Source: Octopus sinensis
Lineage: Eukaryota
Assembly: GCF_006345805.1 (NCBI RefSeq)
Contig: NC_043002.1
Span: 100,626,001-100,690,000 of the forward strand
Direction of reading: 5' to 3'
Length of the DNA stretch: 64,000 nt
The stretch's first letter is position 1. The number at the start of each line of letters is the position of its first letter. Positions 5,138 to 62,405 of this stretch are shown in pieces. The notes beneath the pieces were generated by a model that searched no databases, was not told where the DNA came from, and was given only the letters and a program-made list of their open reading frames with translations. A program made the translations under genes and the position numbers.

Positions 5138-5520
5138 GTGGAGGCGCAATGGCCCAGTGGTTAGGCAGCGGACTCGCGGTCATAGGATCGCGGTTTCGAT
5201 TCCCAGACCGGGCGTTGTGAGTGTTTATTGAGCGAAAACACCTAAAGCTCCACGAGGCTCCGGCAGGGGATGGTGGTGATCCCTGCTGTACTCTTTCACC
5301 ACAACTTTCTCTCACTCTTACTTCCTGTTTCTGTTGTACCTGTATTTCAAAGGGCCGGCCTTGTCACTCTCTGTGTCACGCTGAATATCCCCGAGAACTA
5401 CGTTAAGGGTACACGTGTCTGTGGAGTGTTCAGCCACTTACACGTTAATTTCACGAGCAGGCTGTTCCGTTGATTCGGATCAACCGGAACCCTCATCGTC
5501 GTAACCGACGGAGTGCTTCC
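5138..5520 (+). mobile_element. SINE family B (tRNA-Arg-like head), full length
   Basis: A/B-box-like tggcccagtggtt...gtttcgattccc; 11-bp TSD acatatgccgt (5127-5137 / 5521-5531); near-identical copy at 27733-28105. Confidence 0.85.
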
Positions 5521-5949
5521 ACATATGCCGTATTGTTTATTTACTTGTTCACATTTTAGGGTTACTACTGAATTGATGTGATTTAATCCCTTTTTTGAAT
5601 TGATATTTAAATAGGGAAAAATAACATGCATCTATCACCATCTACCGACCGCTTTGAGCCCAATATGCACATAAAATTTCCCACCACTACAGCCCCCAGT
5701 TCCCCAAGGGCGATAGTATGCGGTCTAAGAAATACTGATGTAAACGGGCCTTCTCAAATGATACATTGGAACAGTTAAAAAAAACGTTTGCCATCATCAT
5801 TTCTATGGCAGATTTGAAAACTTTCGGATTCAATTTGATAGAAATTATCGCAAAACCGACAGTTTGGCGATAATTTCCGAACACAATTTAATTCCAATAT
5901 TTTCAAGTGTTTCGACAGCGATTGATATGTATTCCCCTGTCTTTTTTTT

Positions 5950-6540: not shown

Positions 6541-7152
6541 GGACGAAATACCTATTTCTTTACTACCCACAAGGGGCTAAACACAGAGAGGACAAACAAG
6601 GATAGACAAACGGATTAAGACGATTATATCAACCCCCATGGCGTAACTGGTACTTATTTAATCGACCCCGAAAGGATGAAAGGCAAAGTCGACCTCGGCG
6701 GACTTTGAACTCAGAATGTAGCGGCAGACGAAATATCTGTTTCTTTATTACCCACAAGGGGCTAAACACAGAGAGGACAAACAAGGATAGGCAAACGGAT
6801 TAAGACGATTATATCGACCCCATGGCGTAACTGGTACTTATTTAATCGACCCCGAAAGGATGAAGGGCAAAGTCGACCTCGGCAGAATTTTAACTCAGAA
6901 TGTAGCGGCAGACGAAATACCTATTTCTTTATTACCCACAAGGGGCTAAACATAAAGTGGACAAACAAGGACAGACATATGTATTAAGTCGATTACATCG
7001 ACCCCAGTGCGTAACTGGTACTTAATTTATCGACCCCGAAAGGATGAAAGGCAAAGTCGACCTCGGCGGAATTTGAACTTAGAACGTAACGGCAGACGAA
7101 ATACGGCTACGCATTTCGCCCGGCGTGCTAACGCTTCTGCCAGCCCGCCACC
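6541..7152 (-). mobile_element. SINE family C, one head plus 3 tandem ~184-bp units
   Basis: Repeated atcgaccccgaaaggatgaaaggcaaagtcgacctcggcgg; head ttctgccagcccgccacc. Confidence 0.85.
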
Positions 7153-16822: not shown

Positions 16823-17225
16823 GGCGGCGAACTGGCAGAAACGTTAGCACGCCGGGCGAATTGCTTAGCCGTATTTCGTCTGCCGTTACGTTCTGAATTC
16901 AAATTCCGCCGAGGTCGACTTTGCTTTTCATCCTTTCGGGGTCAATAAATTAAGTACCAGTTACGCACTAAAGTCAATGTAATCGACTTAATCCATTTGT
17001 CTGCCCTTGTTTGTTTGTCCCTTCTGTGTTTAGCCCCTTGTGGGTAGTAAAGAAATAGGTATTTCGTCTGCCGTTACGTTCCGAGTTCAAATTCCACCGT
17101 GATCGACTTTTTCTTGCATCCTTTCGGAGTCGATAAATCAAGTGCCAGTTGAGTACTGGGGTCGATGTGATCGACTTTCCCCCACCCCCAAATTTCGGGC
17201 CTTGTGCCTACAGCAAAAAGGATTA
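16823..17225 (+). mobile_element. SINE family C head and unit, followed by a second unit with an alternative tail
   Basis: ggcggcgaactggcagaaacgttagc...aaagaaata|ggtatttcg...gagtactggggtcgat...ggccttgtgcc. Confidence 0.8.
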
Positions 17226-17847
17226 TTTTGCCAATAATATGCTAAACTAAATTACGTTCATGTATTTGTTTTGCAAGTTGTTTTCCTTTTTATGTGAAAC
17301 TGTGCGTTGATGCTTATATTGCTATATTTGGGTATGGTCGTCTTTTGCCAATTAAACACACGCTGTTTATTTGATCTTCATTTTAGTTTTATTATGTGAA
17401 GACGCATGGCTCAGTGGTTAGAGGGTCGAGCTCACAATCACGAGGTAGTGAGTTCGATTCCCAGACCGGGAACTGTTTTCTGGCCACATTCTCTGTTCGT
17501 AGCCCTTTTTTCAACCTCTTACAATATACAGAGATATGATGTTCTGTTTATATCTAGTTTTATTCCAGTCTACATTGTCAAAATCTATTTCCTGTTGCTC
17601 CACTTCACTCAGCTGTAGAAATGAATTGTGATATCACAGGTACCAAGCTGTATCGGCCTATGTCTTAACATCGATGGGTAACATCGATGATGTGGAGAAG
17701 GAATGCTGGCATGTATGGGCGACTGCTGGTCTTCCAAAAACAACCTTGCTCGGACTTGTACTTGGGAGGGGAACTTTCTAGACGCAACACCATGGTCATT
17801 CATGATAGGAGGGGGCCTTTACTCATTACTTAAGTTTTATTAGTATA

Positions 17848-20021
17848 GCCGGCCGCCAACACTTTTTTTTTCTGCAAAATAGGGGTAGCTCATCCTGTTT
17901 AGGCTATATTATTAGCATTATCCTGCGTTTGAGAATTTAAAATCACTTCTTTAACTTTCTGAGACATCTCAACGCTTCTAAAGCAAACTTCGTTTGTTTG
18001 TTTACGTTCATCGTAATTTGAATTTAACGTATGATAGTGTCTCATAAAAGCGAGATTTCTATATATCTTAAACTAGCAGTATCGCCCGGCGTTGCTCGGG
18101 TTTGTAAGGGAAATAACTATAAAGCATTTTTAGAGAGTTATAGCCAAAAAATAGCAAAAAAATGGGGAAAAAAATGATGGTAAAGTTTTTTTGATAGTTA
18201 AAAAGGTCGAGTTGCGTCTGTGGTTTGTGTTTCTGATAGTCGACCCCATGTCGAATTTATCGATCTTTTTCAGAACTGGGGGAACTTTTCAAAATTTTCG
18301 CTGCGTTAGTTTTGAATTATGACATTGGGCTATGTGTGTGTCAAGTTTCATCAGAATCGGTTGAAAGCTGTGGTCAGGGTGAAGGTACAACCAAACAGAC
18401 ACACAGAAACACACACAGACAAACTGCCGTTTATATAGAGAGAGATTTGCAGAAGAATTTGGGGTGTGGGCAGTTTAGCTTAACGGTTCAGAGCACCGCG
18501 AAGCGTAATCACGGAGATGTGAGTTCGTGTCTCATCGCCAGCCGCTAACACCCTTATTTTTCTGCAAAATAGGGGTAGCTCATCCTGTTTAGGCTATATT
18601 ATTAGCATTATCCTGCGTTTGAGAATTTAAAATCACTTCTTTAACTTTCTGAGACATCTCAACGCTTCTAAAGCAAACTTCGTTTGTTTGTTTACGTTCA
18701 TCGTAATTTGAATTTAACGTATGATAGTGTCTCATAAAAGCGAGATTTCTATATATCTTAAACTAGCAGTATCGCCCGGCGTTGCTCGGGTTTGTAAGGG
18801 AAATAACTATAAAGCATTTTTAGAGAGTTATAGCCAAAAAATAGCAAAAAAATGGGGAAAAAAATGATGGTAAAGTTTTTTTGATAGTTAAAAAGGTCGA
18901 GTTGCGTCTGTGGTTTGTGTTTCTGATAGTCGACCCCATGTCGAATTTATCGATCTTTTTCAGAACTGGGGGAACTTTTCAAAATTTTCGCTGCGTTAGT
19001 TTTGAATTATGACATTGGGCTATGTGTGTGTCAAGTTTCATCAGAATCGGTTGAAAGCTGTGGTCAGGGTGAAGGTACAACCAAACAGACACACAGAAAC
19101 ACACACAGACAAACTGCCGTTTATATAGAGAGAGATTTGCAGAAGAATTTGGGGTGTGGGCAGTTTAGCTTAACGGTTCAGAGCACCGCGAAGCGTAATC
19201 ACGGAGATGTGAGTTCGTGTCTCATCGCCAGCCGCTAACACCCTTATTTTTCTGCAAAATAGGGGTAGCTCATCCTGTTTAGGCTATATTATTAGCATTA
19301 TCCTGCGTTTGAGAATTTAAAATCACTTCTTTAACTTTCTGAGACATCTCAACGCTTCTAAAGCAAACTTCGTTTGTTTGTTTACGTTCATCGTAATTTG
19401 AATTTAACGTATGATAGTGTCTCATAAAAGCGAGATTTCTATATATCTTAAACTAGCAGTATCGCCCGGCGTTGCTCGGGTTTGTAAGGGAAATAACTAT
19501 AAAGCATTTTTAGAGAGTTATAGCCAAAAAATAGCAAAAAAATGGGGAAAAAAATGATGGTAAAGTTTTTTTGATAGTTAAAAAGGTCGAGTTGCGTCTG
19601 TGGTTTGTGTTTCTGATAGTCGACCCCATGTCGAATTTATCGATCTTTTTCAGAACTGGGGGAACTTTTCAAAATTTTCGCTGCGTTAGTTTTGAATTAT
19701 GACATTGGGCTATGTGTGTGTCAAGTTTCATCAGAATCGGTTGAAAGCTGTGGTCAGGGTGAAGGTACAACCAAACAGACACACAGAAACACACACAGAC
19801 AAACTGCCGTTTATATAGAGAGAGATTTGCAGAAGAATTTGGGGTGTGGGCAGTTTAGCTTAACGGTTCAGAGCACCGCGAAGCGTAATCACGGAGATGT
19901 GAGTTCGTGTCTCATCGCCAGCCGCTAACACCCTTATTTTTCTGCAAAATAGGGGTAGCTTATCCTGTTCAGGCTATATTATTAGCATTATCATGCGTTT
20001 GAGAATTTAAAATCACTTCTT
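17848..20021. repeat. Tandem triplication of a 690-bp unit, each unit containing a minus-strand Helitron (e.g. 18073-18445)
   Basis: Identical ORFs at 18312/19002/19692 (period 690); Helitron ends a|ctagcagtatcgcccggcg ... tatagagagaga|t. Confidence 0.9.
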
Positions 20022-20720
20022 AAAATTTTCTTTAGTTTATTTGTCCGTTAAAGTTCTCCTGCCTATTCCATTTTACACCTTCTGTGGTGTAGTGCCTGTG
20101 TTTAATTGACAAAAGATGACCATCCCCAGGTATAACAATCTGCTAAGATAGTTATATATGTGTGTGTTTGCATATGTGTGTATGTGTATGCGTGAGAGCG
20201 TTCGCATATGTCGGCGTGCGTGTGTGCATTTGCGTTCGAGCATATGTAAATGGGTGTACTTGTGCGCATGTATATACAGAATATAAGGAAAAAAGGTAGT
20301 ATAGAAGGATGACAAAGAAATTTACAGAAAAAAAAAAGAAAGAAGCGAAAACACACCACAAGTAAGTTCAATTCTTTATTAGTTATGGACCAAATTTCAT
20401 CACATTTTCGACACCCTCCAACAACTGAATCCAAGGAACTGAAAAATAAGACGGAAACCAGAAAAAGGTTTATACAAGGACAATAAAGGGAATTTGTTGT
20501 TATTTACTCAGCATTACACGTGTTTCACTTGCTAATAGGAAATACAAAGTTTTACGTGTCAGGCGTGTCACAAATTTTCTATCAAAAATTCTTCAGACTG
20601 AGAAATTGAATCATTATTTTATTTAATAGCAAATGAAACACGTGTAATGGTGAATAAATAATGCCAAAAATGTCCAACTTGCTGTTTTATTATACAATAA
20701 GCCCTGCAAATAATATTTCC

Positions 20721-22665: not shown

Positions 22666-23562
22666 CTTTTCAGTTCGGTAACCAAATTAAGATAGCATAT
22701 ATATTGAAAGCATAAGAACAGCAATTAACTGGAAAGGATATAGCGGTTGCAGAATGTATGATAGTATATTTTAAAAGGTAAATCACTAAAGCTGGAGTAA
22801 GTTTACATTGTACTCAAGGTGCTCAACTTGCACGAACCAACAGTCAAATTCTCCTATCACAGCTCAACGTCTTTCAAAAAATAATATTAGATTAGTTAAT
22901 GTTGCTGAGGTACTTGATGCCTCGATCAAACACGGAAGAGCCATGCTTAACACTCTTTTGATCATAAATTTACTTGATCAGGACTGGCCTGGTGTGAAAC
23001 AACCACTCCACAAGATAACAAACGAAGAAGCCGTTACATGATCACTTAAACTGTTAGGAATAGAAGCGAAATCACCCTCAAATTACAACTGTCTTTAAAA
23101 AAAAACGAAAGCAGAGACGCATTGGACAACGTAAACATAAAGACGGTGTGGTCACGGTCGGAACTCCTTTGATCATTGATCTGCAAAATCTATCTTTAAT
23201 CATTAGATTAAACAATAACAATCCATCATTTAGCATTCTGAACAGTAAAAATGGTTTCGAGAAATAAACATTGGCTCCATCTGTGAATCGAAACTGTTCC
23301 CACCGGATTTAAAGTCACAAAAGGAAATTTTAAAGCACATCAAGCCGTATCTACGTAGTCTCTTCGACTTCTAGAAATATAAACCAAATCAACCAAATAT
23401 ACTCTTAAAAATCAAACGTCATATTGGATCATTCTCTTTCAGATTCACTATGACATCATCACTTTTACGTCCTTCCTACCATGCTAGCATGGGTTCTGTA
23501 GGACGCTTTGAGGCAGCGTTTTACCATAGGATGCTTATCTTGGTGTCAAACATTTAATTACC

Positions 23563-24161
23563 TATTTCTTTACTACCCACAAGGAGCTAAACACAGAGAG
23601 GACAAACAAGGACAGACAAACGGATTAAGTCGATTAGGTCGACCCCAGTGCGCAAGTGATACTTATTTAATCGACCCCGAAAGGATGAAAGGCAAAGTCG
23701 ACCTCGGCGGAATTTGAACTCAGAACGTAACGGCAGACGAAATACCTGTTTCTTTACTACCCACAAGGAGCTAAACACAGAGAGGACAAACAAGGACAGA
23801 CAAACGGATTAAGTCGATTAGATCGACCCCAGTGCGCAAGTGATACTTATTTAATCGACCCCGAAAGGATGAAAGGCAAAGTCGACCTCGGCGGAATTTG
23901 AACTCAGAACGTAACGGCAGACGAAATACCTGTTTCTTTACTACCCACGAGGAGCTAAACACAGAGAGGACAAACAAGGACAGACAAACGGATTAAGTCG
24001 ATTACATCGACCCCAGTGCGCAAGTGATACTTATTTAATCGACCCCGAAAGGATGAAAGGCAAAGTCCACCTCGGCGGAATTTGAACTCAGAACGTAACG
24101 GCAGACGAAATACCGCAAAGCATTTCGCCCGGCGTGCTAACGTTTCTGCCAGCTCGCCGCC
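23563..24161 (-). mobile_element. SINE family C, head plus 3 tandem units
   Basis: TSD atttaattacc (23552-23562 / 24164-24174); 184-bp period (ORFs 23587/23771). Confidence 0.88.
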
Positions 24162-24446
24162 TTATTTAATTACCTGTTAGGACACTGAGACACCAAGCTA
24201 CACTATCTTCTGAAAATAAGACTAGGTAGTCAAAGCAGAAACGTCTTCGATCAGGAGTCTTATTGGGCTGGTGCTTGATCTGGGACTAAGCAACATCTAC
24301 ATGTAAAACCAGTCAAATCATATAATGATGGAGAAAGCAGCAGTTGGGTTGTAAAGCTAGGAAGAGTCATGACGGCAAAATTGATAACACGAAGCGGTTC
24401 AGTGCCGCCCCTTGATTATTAGTCAATCGGTTAAATATCAATCCAA

Positions 24447-25962
24447 GGCGGCGAGCTGGCAGAAACGTTAGCACGTCGGGCGAAATGCTTAGCGGTATTT
24501 CGTCTGCCGTTACGTTGTGAGTTCAAATTCCGCCGAGGTCGACTTTACCTTTCATCCTTTCGGGGTCGATAAATTAAGTACCAGTTACGCACTGGGGTCG
24601 ATGTAATCGACTTAATACCTATGTCTGTATTTGTTTGTCCCCTCTGTGTTTAGCCCCTTGTGGGTAATAAAGAAATAGGTATTTCGTCTGCCGTTACGTT
24701 CTGAGTTCAAATTCCGCCGAGGTCGACTTTACCTTTCATCCTTTCGGGGTCGATAAATTAAGTACCAGTTACGCACTGGGGTCGATGTAATCGACATAAT
24801 ACCTATGTCTGTATTTGTTTGTCCCCTCTGTGTTTAGCCCCTTGTGGGTAATAAAGAAATAGGTATTTCGTCTGCCGTTACGTTCTGAGTTCAAATTCCG
24901 CCGAGGTCGACTTTACCTTTCATCCTTTCGGGGTCGATAAATTAAGTACCAGTTACGCACTGGGGTCGATGTAATCGACTTAATACCTATGTCTGTATTT
25001 GTTTGTCCCCTCTGTGTTTAGCCCCTTGTGGGTAATAAAGAAATAGGTATTTCGTCTGCCGTTACGTTCTGAGTTCAAATTCCGCCGAGGTCGACTTTAC
25101 CTTTCATCCTTTCGGGGTCGATAAATTAAGTACCAGTTACGCACTGGGGTCGATGTAATCGACTTAATACCTATGTCTGTATTTGTTTGTCCCCTCTGTG
25201 TTTAGCCCCTTGTGGGTAATAAAGAAATAGGTATTTCGTCTGCCGTTACGTTCTGAGTTCAAATTCCGCCGAGGTCGACTTTACCTTTCATCCTTTCGGG
25301 GTCGATAAATTAAGTACCAGTTACGCACTGGGGTCGATGTAATCGACATAATACCTATGTCTGTATTGTTTGTCCCCTCTGTGTTTAGCCCCTTGTGGGT
25401 AATAAAGAAATAGGTATTCGTCTGCCGTTACGTTCTGAGTTCAAATTCCGCCGAGGTCGACTTTGCCTTTTATCCTTTCGGGGTCGATAATTAAGTACCA
25501 GTTACGCACTGGGGTCGATGTAATCGACTTAATACCTATGTCTGTATTTGTTTGTCCCCTCTGTGTTTAGCCCCTTGTGGGTAATAAAGAAATAGGTATT
25601 TCGTCTGCCGTTACGTTCTGAGTTCAAATTCCGCCGAGGTCGACTTTACCTTTCATCCTTTCGGGGTCGATAAATTAAGTACCAGTTACGCACTGGGGTC
25701 GATGTAATCGACTTAATACCTATGTCTGTATTTGTTTGTCCCCTCTGTGTTTAGCCCCTTGTGGGTAATAAAGAAATAGGTATTTCGTCTGCCGTTACGT
25801 TCTGAGTTCAAATTCCGCCGAGGTCGACTTTACCTTTCATCCTTTCGGGGTCGATAAATTAAGTACCAGTTACGCACTGGGGTCGATGTAATCGACTTAA
25901 TACCTATGTCTGTCCTTGTTTGTCCCTTCTATGTTTAGCCCCTTGTGGGTAATAAAGAAATA
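24447..25962 (+). mobile_element. SINE family C, head plus 8 tandem 182-184-bp units
   Basis: Units start at ggtatttcg at 24494, 24678, 24862, 25046, 25230, 25413, 25595, 25779; TSD ggttaaatat(c/g)aatccaa (24429-24446 / 25963-25980). Confidence 0.9.
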
Positions 25963-26291
25963 GGTTAAATATGAATCCAACTATCCAATCGATCGATTAG
26001 CTTGCTGGTTAAACTGCCAATGGTTTTTGTTTCATTTTTGTACTTCGTCACAGGTTTTTCGTTACCATTCACAAACCTTTGCAGTGACTTCTCTCCCAGT
26101 TCGTTACGGTGGCCGTGTTTGTCTGAGCCCTTGTTGCTTTTATGTGTGTAGAGCTATATAAGTGTAATTGGTAACATTGGGGCTAAGTGTGTCGGGACAG
26201 AGAGAGAAGGGTCAGCGTATGTGTGTGGTAGTTTGTCACGTCATAAGGGCAATGGACGTGTTTGTGTGTGCGCAGTGGTATAGATAACTAA

Positions 26292-26482
26292 TGCTTAGCG
26301 GTATTTCGTCTGCGTTACGTTGTGAGTTCAAATTCCGCCGAGGTCGACTTTGCCTTTTATCCTTTCGGGGTCGATAAATTAAGTACCAGTTACGAACTGG
26401 GGTCGATGTAATTGAGTTAATACCTATGTCTGTCCTTGTTTGTTCCCTCTGTGTTTAGCCCCTTGTGGGTAATAAAGAAATA
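26292..26482 (+). mobile_element. 5'-truncated SINE family C copy
   Basis: TSD ggtatagataactaa (26277-26291 / 26483-26497). Confidence 0.85.
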
Positions 26483-27732
26483 GGTATAGATAACTAAGAC
26501 AGAATTAGTGTGTATTTGTTAGAATTAGTGTATGTGCTTAAACTTGTGTACAGAGCAAAAATAGAATGTCCTAATTTGTTAGGGGAGAAAATGAAAGTGT
26601 AGTTATAATTTCGTGTGTGAGTAACGCAAAACATTTGTGTGATTTTGATATGCAAAAAGTGTGTGTCATACAAAACATGTGTTTGTATGACACAGGAGGT
26701 GCGGGGTGATGCAAAGAATGTGTGCTGTGCGAGAGAGAGTAACAGAAAGAAATATTTATTTTAACAGGAAATATGTTGGATGAGAGATAAGTTCTGAGAG
26801 GAAAGAAGTTATCATCAACGATGATGATGATGATGATGATCATGAATTAACGTGGCTGTGGTGAGGGTGTCGATGATATTGATGATGATGATGATGATGT
26901 ATGATTGTAGTGGTGGTGTTATTGATGATGATGATAATGATGGTGGTGATAATGGTGGTGGTGGTGGTGGTGGTGGCGGCGGCGGCGACGGTGACGGCGG
27001 CGATGATGATGATGTTAAGAGATGTTGATTATGGTATGCTTGGAAATGTTGATGGCGGTGATAATGATGCGGTGATAGTGGTCGGAGTAGCAGTACTGTG
27101 CGGTGATCCGTGTTGGCGACCAAACGAAAGACCACCCCGGTCGCCATAATAGGAAAAAGCAGAGAAAAGCCAGATTTTTAGTTTCTTTTTTTTTTCTAAA
27201 AAAATTTCGAACGAAGTTAACAATAGCAACAACAGCTTCATAAGTCAAACTAAAATGACAACTGTGACCTGTCTGGATGTGTGGCAGTTGTCCAGCGTTC
27301 AAAGACATCCAAGACTTGGCCATCCCTATTTCTTTTTTCTGATTTAAAGCATATTTAGCTGCTGCTTCTAGCAAGCCGACCGATCACATAGAGGCTCCCT
27401 TAATTGGTTGGTTAGAGTATGGAGAATGATTCTGAGGGATCAAACGGTAAGAGATATATAATTACTGGGAGCAGGGTATGTGGGTGAGGAAGGATCCACG
27501 CTAATAATGCTGGAAGCAGGGAAAAAGAAAACGAAAAATATAATTAGAAAAAAAAAATAATAACCGGTGGAGTGGGAATATACTGAAACGTGATTGCTCA
27601 TACACAGATTATATATCCTCCGTCTAATTCGACGATGAGCATTCAGCTGTTTTCATCATAAGGTTTAGTTCGGGTCTGAGCTACAGAGGTTTATTTAGTT
27701 CGGCTCTTGCTCACAAGATTTAGTTTGGCCTT

Positions 27733-28105
27733 ATGGCCCAGTGGTTAGGGCAGCGGACTCGCGGTCATAGGATCGCGGTTTCGATTCCCAGACCGGGCGT
27801 TGTGAGTGTTTATTGAGCGAAAACACCTAAAGCTCCACGAGGCTCCGGCAGGGGATGGTGGTGATCCCTGCTGTACTCTTTCGCCACAACTTTCTCTCAC
27901 TCTTACTTCCTGTTTCTGTTGTACCTGCATTTCAAAGGGCCGGCCTTGTCACTCTCTGTGTCACGCTGAATATCCCCGAGAACTACGTTAAGGGTACGCG
28001 TGTCTGTGGAGTGCTCAGCCACTTACACGTTAATTTCACGAGCAGGCTGTTCCGTTGATTCGGATCAACCGGAACCCTCGTCGTCGTAACCGACGGAGTG
28101 CTTCC
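27733..28105 (+). mobile_element. SINE family B copy
   Basis: Nearly identical to 5138-5520. Confidence 0.85.
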
Positions 28106-28312
28106 ATCAAGCTCTGAATTTGCTATGCATTTGGTTTTCTCACTGGCTGTTGCTGGGATGTTCGTCTCCCTCCGATATATTTTATTTTTAAACGCAGTTC
28201 CTCCATTAGAGATTTATCTCTGGACGAATACTGTAGCAAATTTATTTACCTTTCAACAATATATTTTCACTTATACTGCATCTATTGTATACAAAGGAGA
28301 TATATATGTGTT

Positions 28313-33276: not shown

Positions 33277-34187
33277 GTTAAGGTACATACAGTGGTGATG
33301 TACTCATTAAGGTATCTACAGTGGTGATGTACTCAATACGGTACATACAGTGGTGATGTACTCATTAAGGTACATACAGTGGTGATGTACTCATTAAGGT
33401 ATATACAGTGGTGATGTACTCATTAAGGTATATACAGTGGTGATGTACTCATTAAGGTACATACAGTGGCGATGTACTCATTAAGGTACATACAGTGGTG
33501 ATGTACTCATTAAGGTACATACAGTGGCGATGTACTCATTAAGGAATATACAGTGGCGATGTACTCAATACGGTACATACAGTGGCGATGTACTCATTCA
33601 GGTACATACAGTGGCGATGTACTCATTAAGGTACATACAGTGGTGATGTACTCATTAAGGTACATACATTGGTGATGTACTCATTAAGGTACATACAGTG
33701 GTGATGTACTCATTAAGGTATATACAGTGGTGATGTACTCATTAAGGTACATACAGTGGTGATGTACTCATTAAGGAATATACAGTGGCGATGTACTCAT
33801 TAAGGTACATACAGTGGCGATGTACTCATTAAGGTACATACAGTGGTGATGTACTCATTAAGGTATATACAGTGGCGATGTACTCATTAAGGTACATACA
33901 GTGGTGATGTACTCATTAAGGAATATACAGTGGCGATGTACTCAATACGGTACATACAGTGGCGATGTACTCATTAAGGAATATACAGTGGCGATGTACT
34001 CAATACGGTACATACAGTGGCGATGTACTCAATACGGTACATACAGTGGCGATGTACTCATTAAGGTACATACAGTGGTGATGTACTCATTAAGGTATAT
34101 ACAGTGGTGATGTACTCATTAAGGTACATACAGTGGTGATGTACTCATTAAGGTATATACAGTGGTGATGTACTCAATACGGTATAC
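33277..34187. repeat. 29-bp minisatellite, about 31 copies
   Basis: Unit gtacatacagtggtgatgtactcattaag with recurrent variants (ggcg, aatacgg, gaata). Confidence 0.95.
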
Positions 34188-39110: not shown

Positions 39111-39520
39111 TAGGGTATATAATGTTCGATAAATGATATTCGACAAATTATAAACCAAATGAAAAGAAGCACTCGGATTGAAATGATCGATTAATTCCCA
39201 TAAAGGTAGTGCCCCAGATTGGCCGCAGTCTTATGACTAAAATACTGAATAAGTAATAATATGTGTGTGGATGGAAGGATGGATGCTAGTTGTTTTCGTC
39301 AGCAAACCCAAGATCTTGATGGAGCCTTACCTTGTATATATGTGTATGTGTGCGTTTGTGTTCGATCGTTTGTGCGTGTGTGAGAGCTTACCTTCATCAG
39401 GATAAAGTACTCAATACTGAAAATTGAGTGCAATATTTATTGTGGCGATGAAGTCACACTGTTACCATTCAGCGTTTCACGTATCTGGCTATGAGACCTG
39501 GTATTTATAGCAAGACAAAA

Positions 39521-39751
39521 GGCGGCGAGCTGGCAGAAACGTTAGCACGCTGGGCGAAATGCGTAGCCGTATTTCGTCTGCCGTTACGTTCTGAGTTCAA
39601 ATTCCGCCGAGGTCGACTTTGCCTTTCATCCTTTCGGGGCCGATAAATTAAGTACCAGTTACGCACTGGGGTCGATATAATCGACTTAATCCGTTTGTCT
39701 GTCCTTGTTTGTCTTCTCTGTGTTTAGCCCCTTGTGGGTAGTAAAGAAATA
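39521..39751 (+). mobile_element. SINE family C monomer
   Basis: TSD ggtatttatagcaaga (39500-39515 / 39752-39767). Confidence 0.88.
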
Positions 39752-40699
39752 GGTATTTATAGCAAGATATTCATGAGTGATCAGTTGTTATGTGGGAAAT
39801 GATACGAAGTAGTGTTTATATTTAAGGTATTAATATAAGTGTAGCCAAAGTGAAAGAAAAATCACGATGACTAATAACATCTTCCTATACAAAGTACACA
39901 CTCTGGAACTCCGTCGGTTACGACGAGGCGTCGTCCAGTTGATTCGATCAACCCGCTCGTGAAATTGATATTCGTGAGGCTGGGCACTCCACAGACACGC
40001 GTACCTTAAAGTAATTCTCGGGTAGATTCAACGTAACACAGAATCTGACAAGGCAGGCACATTGTAATACAAGTACTACTCGTTTTTGCCAACTGACTGG
40101 ACTAGAACAACATGAAATAAAGTGTCTTGCTCAAGGACACAACGTACTGCCCGAAATCGAACTCATGACCTTAAGATCGTGAGCCAAATACCCTAACCAC
40201 TAAGCTACACACCTTCACAGTACACACACACAATTGTCACATACGCATACACCAATTCATTTCATATGTACATCTGCACTTACATAGTCACACATGGATA
40301 TGAGCGCACGTTCGCACGCAGACGCACACGCACACACACACACCGGTTTATCCAGCTCTTTCCCGTGGTTATTGGTCGTCTATCTATCTTTATATCAATA
40401 TATCTAACGAGCAAGCATTACGTTTGAATAAATGTCTATTTATTCGTCATTTTGAATTATGTCTACGTACTAGATTTGTCCTTACATTTACTCATGCTTA
40501 ATCACGCCCCCCCCCACCACCATCACACGAAGATGTTTATATAGCCAACTGCATAAGAGTACGGCTGTGCGGTAAGAAGCTTGATTCTCAACCACATGGT
40601 TCCGGGTTTAGTCCCGCTGCGTGGCACCTTTGGCAAATGTCTTCTACTGTAGCATCGGGCCGACCAAATTATTATGAGTGGATGTGATAGATATATATA

Positions 40700-47109: not shown

Positions 47110-48080
47110 AGCCAGCGAGCTGGCAGAATCGTTAGCACGCCGGGAGAAATGTTTTGCAGTATTTCGTCTGTTGCTACGTTCTGAGTTCAAATTCTGCCGA
47201 GGTCGACTTTGCCTTTCATCTTTTCAGGGTCGATGAATTAAGTACCAGTTGAGTACCGGGGTCGATATAATCGACTTAATCCCTCTCCCAAAATCTCAGG
47301 CCTTATACTTACAGTAGAAACGATGATTACAATTAATATTATTATTATTATTGTTATTATTCAAAGTGGCGAGCTGGCAGAATCGTTAGCACGCCGGGGG
47401 AAATGCTTAGCGGTATTTCGTCTGTCGTTACATTGTGAGTTCAAATTCCGCCGAGGTCGACTTTGCCTTTCATCCTTTCGGGGTCGATAAATTAAGTAAC
47501 AGTTACGCACTAGGGTCGATGTAATCGACTTAATACATATGTCTGTCTTTGTTTGTCCCCTCTATGTTTAGCCCCTTGTGGGTAATAAAGAAATAGGTAT
47601 TTCGTTTGCCGCTACGTTCTGAGTTCAAATTCCTTTCGGGGTCGATTAAATAAGTACCAGTTACGCACTGGGGTCGATATAATCGACTTAATCCGTTTGT
47701 CTGTACTTGTTTGTCCTCCCTGTGTTTAGCCCGTTGTGGGTAGTAAAGAAATAGGTATTTCTCCCGTCGTTACACTCTGAGTTCAAATTCCGCTGAGGTC
47801 GACATTACCTTTCATCCTTTCGGGATCGATACATTAAGAACCAGTGAAACTAATATCACCACCACGAAGGCTGCGAGCTGACCGAATAGTTAGCAAGTCG
47901 GGCAAAATGCTTAGCGGCATTTCGTCTGTCTATACGTTCTGAGCTCAAATTTCGCCGAGTTCGACTTTGCCTTTCATCTTTTCGAGGTCGATAAAGTAAG
48001 TACCAGTTAAACGCTGGGGGTCGATGTAATCGACTCGTGCCCTCCCCTCCAAATTGCTCACCTAGTAGCAAAAATTTGAA
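47110..48080 (+). mobile_element. Cluster of SINE family C copies and tail variants
   Basis: Three gcgagctggcagaa / gcgagctgaccgaa heads and several ggtattt-starting units. Confidence 0.8.
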
Positions 48081-61847: not shown

Positions 61848-62405
61848 AACAAGAGGACTCAGAAAGCGCAAACCTCCACCAAGGCAACACCAACGTCCTC
61901 TCAACGATTTTTTAACATGAAAATATCCGAAATAAACTCGCCTGTTTATCACAAACGAGAATACTAAAATAAACCCGATTGCTCTCAAAAGTTAAGTGAA
62001 AAAAAAAACAGAAAGACAATACACAATCCTTGTCCGGTACCGCATCGATTCCAAAATCTAAACAGTTTGTGCCAGCAACAAGGCCAAACATCCTTGAAAG
62101 TTTCATCCGAATCGATCCAGCGGTTTTTGAGATATCTTGTCCACGGACAAACAAACAAATATATACGACTGAAAAACAATGCCTATTTCTTTATTACCCA
62201 CAGGGGGCTAAACACAGAGGGGACAAACAAGGACAGACATAGTTATTAAGTCGATTACATCGACCCCAGTGCGTAACTGGTACTTAATTTATCGACCCCG
62301 AAAGGATGAAAGGCAAAGTCGACCTCGGCGGAATTTGAACTCACAACGTAACGAGACGAAATACCGCTAAACAATACCTCCGCCTTCCCTAAGCTGGGGG
62401 TAATA
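61848..62405. mobile_element. Helentron/HINE-like non-autonomous element containing a SINE C copy (62184-62368, minus strand)
   Basis: Starts aacaagag; internal aaagtttcatccgaatcgatccagcggtttttgagatatc; (acaa)n; ends acctccgcc...gggggtaataa. SINE TSD aaacaat(g/a)cc. Confidence 0.55.

Follow-up and report, generated by a model that had tools for sequence, protein, structure and literature searches.

The window, by which we mean the whole 64,000-nucleotide stretch of Octopus sinensis DNA that was analysed, contains single and tandem copies of a 231-bp SINE, numbered from +1 at position 24447, so that the motif GGTATTTCG at 24494 begins at +48. The element is short, non-coding, present in high copy number and flanked by target-site duplications (TSDs) of 12–25 bp (mode 16), as expected of a SINE. 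Paired GGCGG/CCGCC ends and box-like motifs are visible in its head, which folds; we take these motifs to be A-box-like and B-box-like, which makes the head a candidate tRNA-like region on sequence grounds. ARAGORN and Rfam gave no match for the head, a protein atlas search added no name for the system, and, in a search for counterparts of the octopus OK, OR1 and OR2 SINEs or the MetaSINE/CORE superfamilies, the MetaSINE supplement covered held bivalve alignments only. The copies and their flanks are as follows.

6553..7151, minus strand: mixed trimer; unit 1 is of a different subfamily, and units 2 and 3 have private variants in common
16823..17225, plus strand: full SINE, then +48 to +167 of a sister SINE whose tail differs
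23552..23562 (3′ copy) and 24164..24174 (5′ copy), minus strand: TSD GGTAATTAAAT of the 23.6-kb trimer
23563..24161, minus strand: head and three near-identical 184-bp units, 97–98% alike, with private variants in common
24429..24446, plus strand: outer TSD of the 8-mer, 5′ copy, GGTTAAATAT(C/G)AATCCAA, 18 bp with one mismatch
24447..24493, plus strand: SINE head (+1 to +47) of the eight-unit array, 5′ part of the putative tRNA-like region; the B-box-like motif lies further on
24494..24502, plus strand: +48 target site, directly 3′ of the loop of the predicted head hairpin
24494..25962, plus strand: eight headless 184-bp units (Tandem Repeats Finder and unit alignment)
25963..25980, plus strand: outer TSD of the 8-mer, 3′ copy
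26277..26291 and 26483..26497: 15-bp TSD GGTATAGATAACTAA of the 26.3-kb monomer
26290..26482, plus strand: 5′-truncated monomer of the youngest subfamily, starting at about +38
39500..39515 and 39752..39767: TSD GGTATTTATAGCAAGA of the 39.5-kb monomer
39521..39751, plus strand: full-length monomer with a 16-bp TSD beginning GGTATTT
47366..47845, plus strand: mixed trimer; the second unit is internally deleted and the third truncated
62184..62373, minus strand: 5′-truncated monomer starting at about +39, TSD GG(T/C)ATTGTTT

A preliminary description of this DNA had stated that the head carries the +48 motif and that every extra unit at 6.5, 16.8, 23.6, 24.4 and 47.4 kb begins there, as we also find; one extra unit at 6.5 kb reads GATATTTCG. 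Its TSDs at 23.5, 24.4, 26.3, 39.5 and 62.2 kb hold as well (the last with a 3′ copy reading GGCA), and both copies of the single outer TSD that it had placed around each of the 23.6- and 24.4-kb arrays were located. Tandem Repeats Finder reported 184-bp arrays of 3.1 copies (6542–7104), 3.0 copies (23559–24114) and 8.0 copies (24494–25965). A degraded further +48 remnant adjoins the 6.5-kb trimer. The second unit at 16.8 kb is not of this SINE family because it ends in the sister tail, and an imperfect outer duplication starting with ATTATT rather than GGT flanks the head and that tail. The predicted head hairpin of the 39.5-kb copy had a fold z of −3.25, and positions 43 and 48 covaried among 94 monomers (G-C in 33, T-G in 33 and T-A in 16); SINE tail hairpins folded no better than shuffles.

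Joints at +48 and target preference

In 2.72 Gb searched, we found 124,457 exact SINE tails, 30,775 of which ran exactly into +48, compared to 0 for a reversed control, and the joining of units seen in the window is thus borne out genome-wide, far above chance. Self-insertion joints therefore account for about a quarter of exact SINE tails; a visible share of the genome is thus shaped by the process, which will distort repeat counts and age estimates. Among 147 junction starts, 130 lay at +48, 10 at +15 and 7 elsewhere; joints at +15 (AGAAACG) numbered 2,563, with a 219C tail in 85 of the 100 listed by our own count. The four-base motif is not a sufficient cause of the +48 hotspot, as a second GGTA inside the same element (antisense, +136) was used 831 times versus 30,775. 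The base at +48 of SINE joints was G in 30,775 and A, C or T in 2,057 (94% G), whereas an unselected sample of intact heads had G in 11, C in 8, A in 8 and T in 1.

The proposal that the SINE targets GGT(A/T) sites, when tested on genome-wide tails, stood for the younger subfamilies and failed for the family as a whole. GGTW directly followed 63,310 of the 124,457 tails; among the 93,682 non-junction tails the count was 32,535 (35%), compared to a background of 0.57%. Enrichment is thus present, but the 35% share refutes a family-wide rule, as do the TSDs of three subfamilies, which began with GGTW in 13 of 14 cases (youngest), 8 of 21 and 0 of 17 (older). This last subfamily prefers AGAA/TATA and self-inserts at +15, and the other large classes of tail flank were AGA (14,376) and TATA starts. 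In 12 of 69 cases the two TSD copies disagreed at the first base, with the 3′ copy mostly fitting the class motif better by eye, and 23 of 28 G-start sites had a pyrimidine at −1.

Sense insertions with a full head joined seamlessly in 102 of 103 cases; of eight antisense insertions at +136 whose host was identified, four retained a full head and a visible TSD and four were 5′-truncated. Homology to the host head is likely to make the 5′ join seamless: a SINE cDNA homologous to that head would anneal to it by its 3′ end, leaving no second head or visible TSD. We rejected a hidden host-derived TSD at +48 to +63, as variants were shared only partially there (9/24 at +53 to +57 and 15/67 at +58 to +62); beyond +62, host variants were shared in about 1 in 10.

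A LINE at the same base

The preliminary description had also suggested looking for a LINE with a SINE-like tail. With a query containing no SINE sequence, we found a young LINE that lay at +48 of the SINE in all 30 copies fetched (among 40 scored, from 337 candidates), and which is target-specific by Kojima's rule of over 20% of flanks in one repeat. The SINE–LINE tail similarity score was 50, compared to a maximum of 35 in 1000 shuffles; the SINE tail aligned with four related LINE 3′ ends, and the two tested beat all 1000 shuffles. Over other stretches, the tails of three sibling LINE families are equally close or closer, but these families have different target sites. A full-length copy had SINE head 1–63 upstream and two TSD copies differing at several bases, a truncated copy lay inside a host trimer with an inner and an outer TSD, and the host head remained upstream in both copies whose 5′ junction was read. 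LINE TSDs were 14–16 bp, similar to the SINE mode.

The +48 LINE has an Exo_endo_phos domain (PF03372) and aligns at 45–55% over nearly the whole length of a sibling ORF2, which contains PF03372, PF00078 and PF13966 and whose nearest solved structure is human L1 ORF2p. The ORF2 layout is that of the L1/Tx1 group (APE endonuclease, reverse transcriptase and C-terminal zinc knuckle), and domain order and targeting habit make the element a candidate "Tx1-like" LINE; a homologue search returned unnamed proteins only. Its endonuclease is, judging from sequence, the likely cutter at +48. LINE copies differed by 1.5% compared to 8.3% among their SINE hosts, and lay about 1% apart, compared to 91–97% identity of most SINE copies to their consensus; because the LINE copies found are younger than most SINE copies, the element that moved the SINE may instead have been an older relative. 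LINE joints kept the host C at +48 in 18 of 30 cases whereas SINE joints mostly carry G, and the endonuclease by itself thus fails to account for the SINE pattern. The sequence-directed self-insertion into resident copies that had been proposed from the window is supported at +48, the base that the similar-tailed LINE also occupies, and microhomology priming may contribute.

No LINE matching the +15/AGAA or TATA classes was found. A LINE that we take, from its RT motifs, to be Dong/R4-like was rejected as partner, its 3′ end at L066 being unlike the SINE tail. Also rejected, as cutter at +48, was a (TATC)n-landing LINE: all 30 copies fetched end in ...AAAGAAACA-TAT, nearly all lie within TATC repeats, and none was shown at +48.

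Composition and growth of the arrays

The arrays analysed, mostly picked by exact joint in the first 15.5 Mb of one contig, comprised 2–10 units, mostly of mixed subfamilies, with first units drawn from many subfamilies. Arrays whose units were at least 97% alike numbered 1 among 76 dimers, 3 among 27 trimers, 0 among 14 tetramers and 3 among the 10 arrays of five or more units. The comparison of unit variants that the preliminary description had called for therefore finds most arrays mixed, and its statement that insertion turns a SINE into a satellite went too far for sampled arrays of this size and make-up. At least four homogenized middle monomers, one mark of a SINE-derived satellite (sSat), occurred only in the 24.4-kb 8-mer and a few others. 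Other marks of such satellites are long arrays and subtelomeric or heterochromatic clustering; the largest array sampled had 10 units, and joints were scattered along the listed part of contig C1.

Divergence from a single consensus inflates values for sister families, and we used rare-variant load in its place. By this measure, in which some family-specific variants may still be included, the last unit exceeded the first in 57 versus 17 of 80 mixed arrays (p = 1.5 × 10−7) and carried about twice as many rare variants, and the load climbed along trimers (0.024, 0.033, 0.039). First- and last-unit loads were uncorrelated (rho 0.02), and in arrays with a 219T-tail last unit the age difference was not significant (10 versus 5, p = 0.27). 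The older 219C tail occurred in 15 of the 31 last units and in none of the 31 first units, and the last unit belonged to a sister family in 15 of 82 arrays under a strict rule, and in 26 dimers of a larger set. By the following sequence markers, the head origin of arrays is mixed: head load (0.040) approximated that of the host (0.042), with the donor at 0.023; 19T occurred in 5 of 26 heads versus 15 of 27 sister monomers; and only 1 case in 14 showed the host's 61T/63T passed on to the first unit. Correlations between head and units did not reach significance.

The 8-mer and the 23.6-kb trimer are 97–99% homogeneous, each within its one TSD. The first and last units of the 8-mer differ in variants, and units 2–7 are chimeras of both, matching the last unit at +71 and the first, wherever they align, at +183, +184 and +200, the pattern that a two-copy dimer should leave on expansion; the 24.4-kb array thus has the look of a dimer enlarged by duplication at the DNA level. 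Two of its units show 1-bp gaps, which may be consensus errors. Public short-read contigs, whose listed joints came from generic SINE contigs, showed no empty allele and did not confirm the eight copies at 24.4 kb.

Assembly of the arrays, alternatives and known systems

We consider it probable that most arrays are separate SINE copies stacked at +48 by LINE machinery, with a few lengthened by DNA duplication. A young LINE with an APE endonuclease, reverse transcriptase, zinc knuckle and SINE-like tail occupies +48, and this LINE or an older relative would mobilize the SINE. Its endonuclease would cut at +47/+48 on the bottom strand, with the top-strand nick falling about 16 nt beyond, and annealing of the SINE cDNA 3′ end to the host head would produce the observed structure of head + 184 + 184. 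Seamless "anneal" 5′ junctions, in which cDNA homologous to the upstream target joins without a seam, are a precedent described for R2 in the passages cited here (PMC11371274, PMC2718515); R2 differs in that it targets rDNA and has a restriction-like endonuclease, and the mechanism is borrowed by analogy only. Each joint restores GGTATTTCG, and the newest unit is the 5′-most. The same machinery, acting less strictly, would account for insertions elsewhere in the genome at Y|GGTA(T), where TSDs are mostly 14–20 bp long, and a minority of arrays, those at 23.6 and 24.4 kb among them, would have been expanded and homogenized by slippage or unequal exchange.

What selects the site may involve more than the enzyme. 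It is possible, if somewhat less likely than not, that an RNA end read past the tail pairs with nicked DNA and sets or sharpens the target, an idea compatible with the LINE explanation, since the two could act together. A T4 run is the usual Pol III terminator and the SINE consensus lacks one, so the RNA would read a few bases beyond the tail; from a joint or a GGTA landing site it would end ...AAAUA-GGUA(UUUCG), and by such pairing each subfamily would inherit the target of its source copy. Target class follows subfamily though tails differ at only one or two bases, each class is itself a self-insertion site (GGTATTT at +48, AGAAACG at +15), G predominates at joints far more than in intact heads, mismatched TSD copies mostly fit the class better on the 3′ side, and R2 template tails guide 3′ junctions in the text cited here (PMC11371274). 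However, the pattern would be no different if the endonucleases of various sibling LINEs had served one after another, and there are several target-specific siblings; the −1 pyrimidine lies outside any RNA pairing, and the mismatch cases are few, some being alignment artefacts. If the tag reading is true, self-insertion would make templates favouring further self-insertion; we regard as doubtful, though worth stating, the closed loop in which the SINE is both passenger and landing site of its LINE, read-through RNA carries a heritable address tag, and subfamily targets (+48 GGTA, +15 AGAA, TATA) diverge without a change of enzyme. Related APE-type LINEs and SINE subfamilies with differing targets offer a test of endonuclease versus RNA–DNA pairing as the chooser of sites, a question that bears on engineered retrotransposon insertion.

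Other routes would build the arrays without stacking. Template jumping between SINE RNAs at the +48 hairpin, or whole copying of composite sources, fits the position of +48 beside the loop of a predicted stable hairpin, the partial tracking of first units by head markers and the single outer TSD; we judge it improbable, as units made in one reaction should be equally old, whereas last units are richer in rare variants and their loads are uncorrelated with those of first units, first units belong to many subfamilies, and the LINE shows that the genomic site is cut. Duplication at the DNA level between the head GGTA and a TSD GGTA accounts for the homogeneous minority, and assembly artefacts could be read into the gapped 8-mer units and a copy number beyond the reach of short-read contigs, but we consider it very unlikely that either made the arrays generally: most are mixed, many end in AGA/TATA duplications or sister tails with no far-end GGTA, and four bases are too few for so many exact joints. 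The homogeneity of the 8-mer and the 23.6-kb trimer within one TSD would suit rolling reverse transcription of a circularised 184-nt RNA, which the preliminary description had put forward, or repeated jumping on one RNA. Such an origin is extremely unlikely and did not survive the comparison of units, given the rarity of arrays at least 97% alike, the differing ends and chimeric middle of the 8-mer, the older last units, and sister-family last units, which cannot stem from one template.

Targeting of repeats by Tx1 LINEs and SINEs is already known, and the cited passages of earlier work compare with the octopus arrays as follows. Crocodilian SINEU and Tx1-Mar LINEs have a common preferred target in Mariner, read as partnership, and Tx1L inserts in Tx1D, with tandem SINEU-3 copies ascribed to sequential insertion (Kojima, 2015; PMC4494074). 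There, as here, a SINE and a LINE (there of the Tx1 clade) share a preferred target inside a repeat, but theirs is a Mariner DNA transposon with tandem copies separated by a TSD, whereas here it is the SINE itself and its sister SINEs, with a seamless headless join. A LINE that targets its own SINE would make the parasite a safe, self-multiplying landing site. The Alu hotspot at Alu 133 (15,759 sense cases), laid to weak L1 sites near the A-rich linker priming on the poly(A) tail (Levy, Schwartz and Ast; PMC2836564), likewise involves sense insertion at one base of an element's own copies; in contrast, the octopus site is not A-rich and a LINE occupies it in 30/30 copies, while the cited Alu text describes no site-confined LINE.

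Squamate SINE satellites reach up to 1000 units, mainly through unequal recombination (Vassetzky et al., 2023; PMC10702118), and blood clam TSD-(SINE)n-TSD arrays contain partial SINE repeats within one TSD (PMC11481361). As far as the cited text goes, both resemble the octopus arrays in their tandem partial SINEs, one longer terminal unit and homogeneity that grows with unit number, and differ in relying mainly on unequal recombination rather than on seeding by separate copies at a fixed base, with at most 10 units sampled here. In the octopus, the passage from dispersed SINE to tandem array can be counted and dated, with monomer, mixed dimer and expanded array side by side. Tandem dimers of transposable elements formed by double insertion (McGurk and Barbash, 2018; PMC5932611) and R1 tandem arrays (PMC2718515), in the passages cited, also show site preference yielding dimers able to expand later; their site is a host site or TSD, whereas here it lies in the element and each insertion recreates the target.

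Genome-wide joints and target sites of the SINE

The window spans C6:100626001-100690000, and its repeated unit is a 231-bp SINE-like element (+1 at position 24447; tail ...GTGGGYARTAAAGAAATA). Unselected stretches totalling 600 kb contained 123 matches; many are sister SINEs, which have +1 to ~+166 in common with this element and then continue into one of two other tails. Exact counts across the 2.72-Gb genome gave 124,457 copies of the SINE tail, followed by GGTW in 63,310 cases, by GGTATTTCG (a joint at +48, where the tail directly abuts another copy) in 30,775, by AGA in 14,376, by AGAAWCGTTAG (the +15 site) in 2,563, by [A/C/T]GTATTTCG in 2,057, and by GGTACTTAW (the antisense +136 site) in 831. 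Reversed-sequence controls for these counts gave 0 to 2, and the background frequency of GGTW is 0.57% per position; thus, the joint is a genome-wide property of the SINE family. The target-site duplications (TSDs) and arrays of the preliminary description are all present in the window, where every extra unit begins at +48, as it had claimed.

The same description had every readable TSD start with GGT(A/T), a preference that proved real in the younger subfamilies and is not family-wide. In the 52 elements with the same first three bases in both TSD copies (17 mismatched elements were set aside), GGTW starts were found in 13 of 14 copies of the youngest subfamily (171A/221A), which takes in the 24.4- and 26.3-kb elements of the window, in 8 of 21 other 219T copies, and in 0 of 17 219C copies, whose TSDs start with AGA or TAT. 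By eye, among the matches listed, GGTW follows 39 of 100 non-joint 219T tails and 1 of 100 219C tails. Sites starting with G read GGTA(T) after a pyrimidine at −1 (23 of 28), and the mode of TSD length is 16. Units upstream of joints are 219T before +48 in 126 cases and before +15 in 1, and 219C before +15 in 6 and before +48 in 2; every subfamily self-inserts where the site matches its own motif. Joints at +48 outnumber those at +136 by 37-fold, indicating that GGTA by itself is not the signal, and later duplication accounts for part of this excess.

Bases +43 and +48 form a covarying pair (G-C, T-G, T-A) that closes the predicted head hairpin, a pattern of substitution that suggests selection on RNA structure exactly at the target site. 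Two monomers, at 26290 and 62373 of the window, are 5′-truncated at nearly identical points (+38/+39) within the 5′ arm of this hairpin.

A LINE that inserts at the same base

The preliminary description had proposed a search for a LINE with a SINE-like tail. Searching for copies of the tail that lack the SINE body identified several related LINEs that encode an APE endonuclease, RT, and a zinc knuckle, including one young family that ends ...GCCCCCGGTGGGCAATAAAGAAATT. A query of 167 bases of its 3′ end, lacking SINE sequence, returned 337 candidates, of which 40 were scored and 30 retrieved; SINE sequence from +48 lies directly 3′ of the LINE in 30 of these 30. Pairwise divergence is 8.3% for the host SINEs and 1.5% for the LINEs, and the host base at +48 is C in 18 and G in 12, showing that the LINE insertions are independent. 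A full-length copy of this LINE on another contig (~C1:829043-834407) is preceded by SINE head +1 to +63, and a second copy, truncated to ~0.7 kb, lies within a trimer head, which it divides in two; both inner and outer TSDs are present. The pattern is real and genome-wide, and the SINE and LINE likely form a target-specific partnership. Judging from the accessible parts of the published accounts, the closest known systems are SINEU with Tx1-Mar, the Alu position-133 hotspot, SINE-derived satellites, and double-insertion dimers. No account of a cephalopod LINE targeting its own SINE was found in the searchable literature about SINEs, repeats of octopus, target choice of Tx1 elements, and insertion in tandem, which takes in few subscription journals and Repbase reports, so a prior description is possible.

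G occupies +48 in 94% of SINE joints; intact heads carry G in 11, C in 8, A in 8, and T in 1, and the LINE accepts C. The excess of G could reflect either an older LINE with a stricter site or extra 3′ bases on the SINE RNA that base-pair with the target or overwrite it. The absence of a T4 run from the SINE consensus and first-base mismatches between TSD copies in 12 of 69 elements, with the motif mostly better in the 3′ copy, hint at such bases, whose contribution as one step we consider possible but slightly the less probable outcome.

Sibling LINE families land in (TATC)n, in another repeat, or beside (ATT)n. Loci of these and of a further LINE are:

L177:1290-1400 and L242:1640-1800: sibling LINE family ending ...ATGAAATA, followed in both copies seen by one and the same segment of another abundant repeat
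L221:3291-6749 (minus strand) and L191-L220: young abundant LINE landing in (TATC)n, 19,222 first-look candidates
L066 (minus strand), ~3.1 kb: nearly intact piece of a LINE, with RT, between (TAA)n repeats

The abundant repeat 3′ of the L177 and L242 copies reads AAGTAGCTT..ACCAACCACAT.., and the sequences suggest that this family may be a second repeat-targeting LINE. Several copies of the (TATC)n-landing LINE have open frames >1100 codons, and the L066 piece presumably resembles the Dong/R4 type.

Array formation and headless units

The arrays sampled come from the window, from unselected DNA (600 kb), from ~0.8 Mb within the first 15.5 Mb of contig C1, most of it chosen around exact joints, and from the search loci. 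The start is +48 for 130 of 147 joints, +15 for 10, and another position for 7; in unselected DNA, 8 of 9 begin at +48. Serial insertion and rolling reverse transcription of a circular unit had both been proposed, with a comparison of unit variants within arrays as the check. Subfamily variants mostly differ between units of one array, and units are at least 97% alike in 1 of 76 dimers. In 57 of 80 mixed arrays, rare variants are more numerous in the last unit than in the first, and the reverse holds for 17 (load 0.043 in last vs 0.022 in first units, p 1.5e-7), and the load climbs 5′ to 3′ along trimers, although the first/last difference is not significant for the 17 arrays with a 219T last unit taken alone. 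A sister SINE with another tail is the last unit of many arrays, including the 16.8-kb element of the window. Repeated copying of one template cannot explain mixed subfamilies, older last units, and sister-SINE ends; the mixed units, the single near-identical dimer, and the sister-SINE ends argue against rolling reverse transcription, and most arrays were likely built by serial insertion.

The 24.4-kb array of the window (24429-25980; eight copies as assembled) has 71G private to unit 1 and 183C/184C/196T/200A private to unit 8, whereas units 2–7 combine the 5′ state of unit 8 with the 3′ state of unit 1, and 166A is common to units 2 and 5. Duplication of a segment across the joint of a two-copy dimer would yield exactly this pattern and is its likely origin. 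Units of the 23.6-kb trimer are homogeneous too, and the 6.5-kb trimer has signs of both insertion of separate copies and DNA-level duplication.

A duplicated site was present upstream in 1 of 103 sense joints with a full-length upstream unit. Antisense +136 insertions with a detected host have a full head and visible TSD in 4 of 8 cases and are 5′-truncated in the other 4; this site offers no homology to the incoming cDNA. This contrast fits a cDNA end that anneals to the head of the host SINE, and such annealing is described for R2 templates carrying upstream target sequence (PMC11371274). Rare-variant load in the head equals that of the host, whereas markers +19, +43/+48, and +61/+63 are often as in the donor.

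Antisense +136 (L294-L305) is a third self-insertion site, with a 7-unit array at ~C1:193006918-193008062 (spacing 186-187 bp). An array of +15 joints at G000:C1:106142915-106144140 (L240), with ~400-bp spacing, probably arose by duplication of a block of two units (217 + 184 bp).

Other repeats of the window are:

17845-20028: tandem repeat with a 690-bp unit in about three copies, 99% alike and unrelated to the SINE
33278-34184: 29-bp minisatellite, 31 copies
5149-5521 and 27733-28106: two direct-repeat copies of 373 bp, 22.6 kb apart and 98% identical to each other
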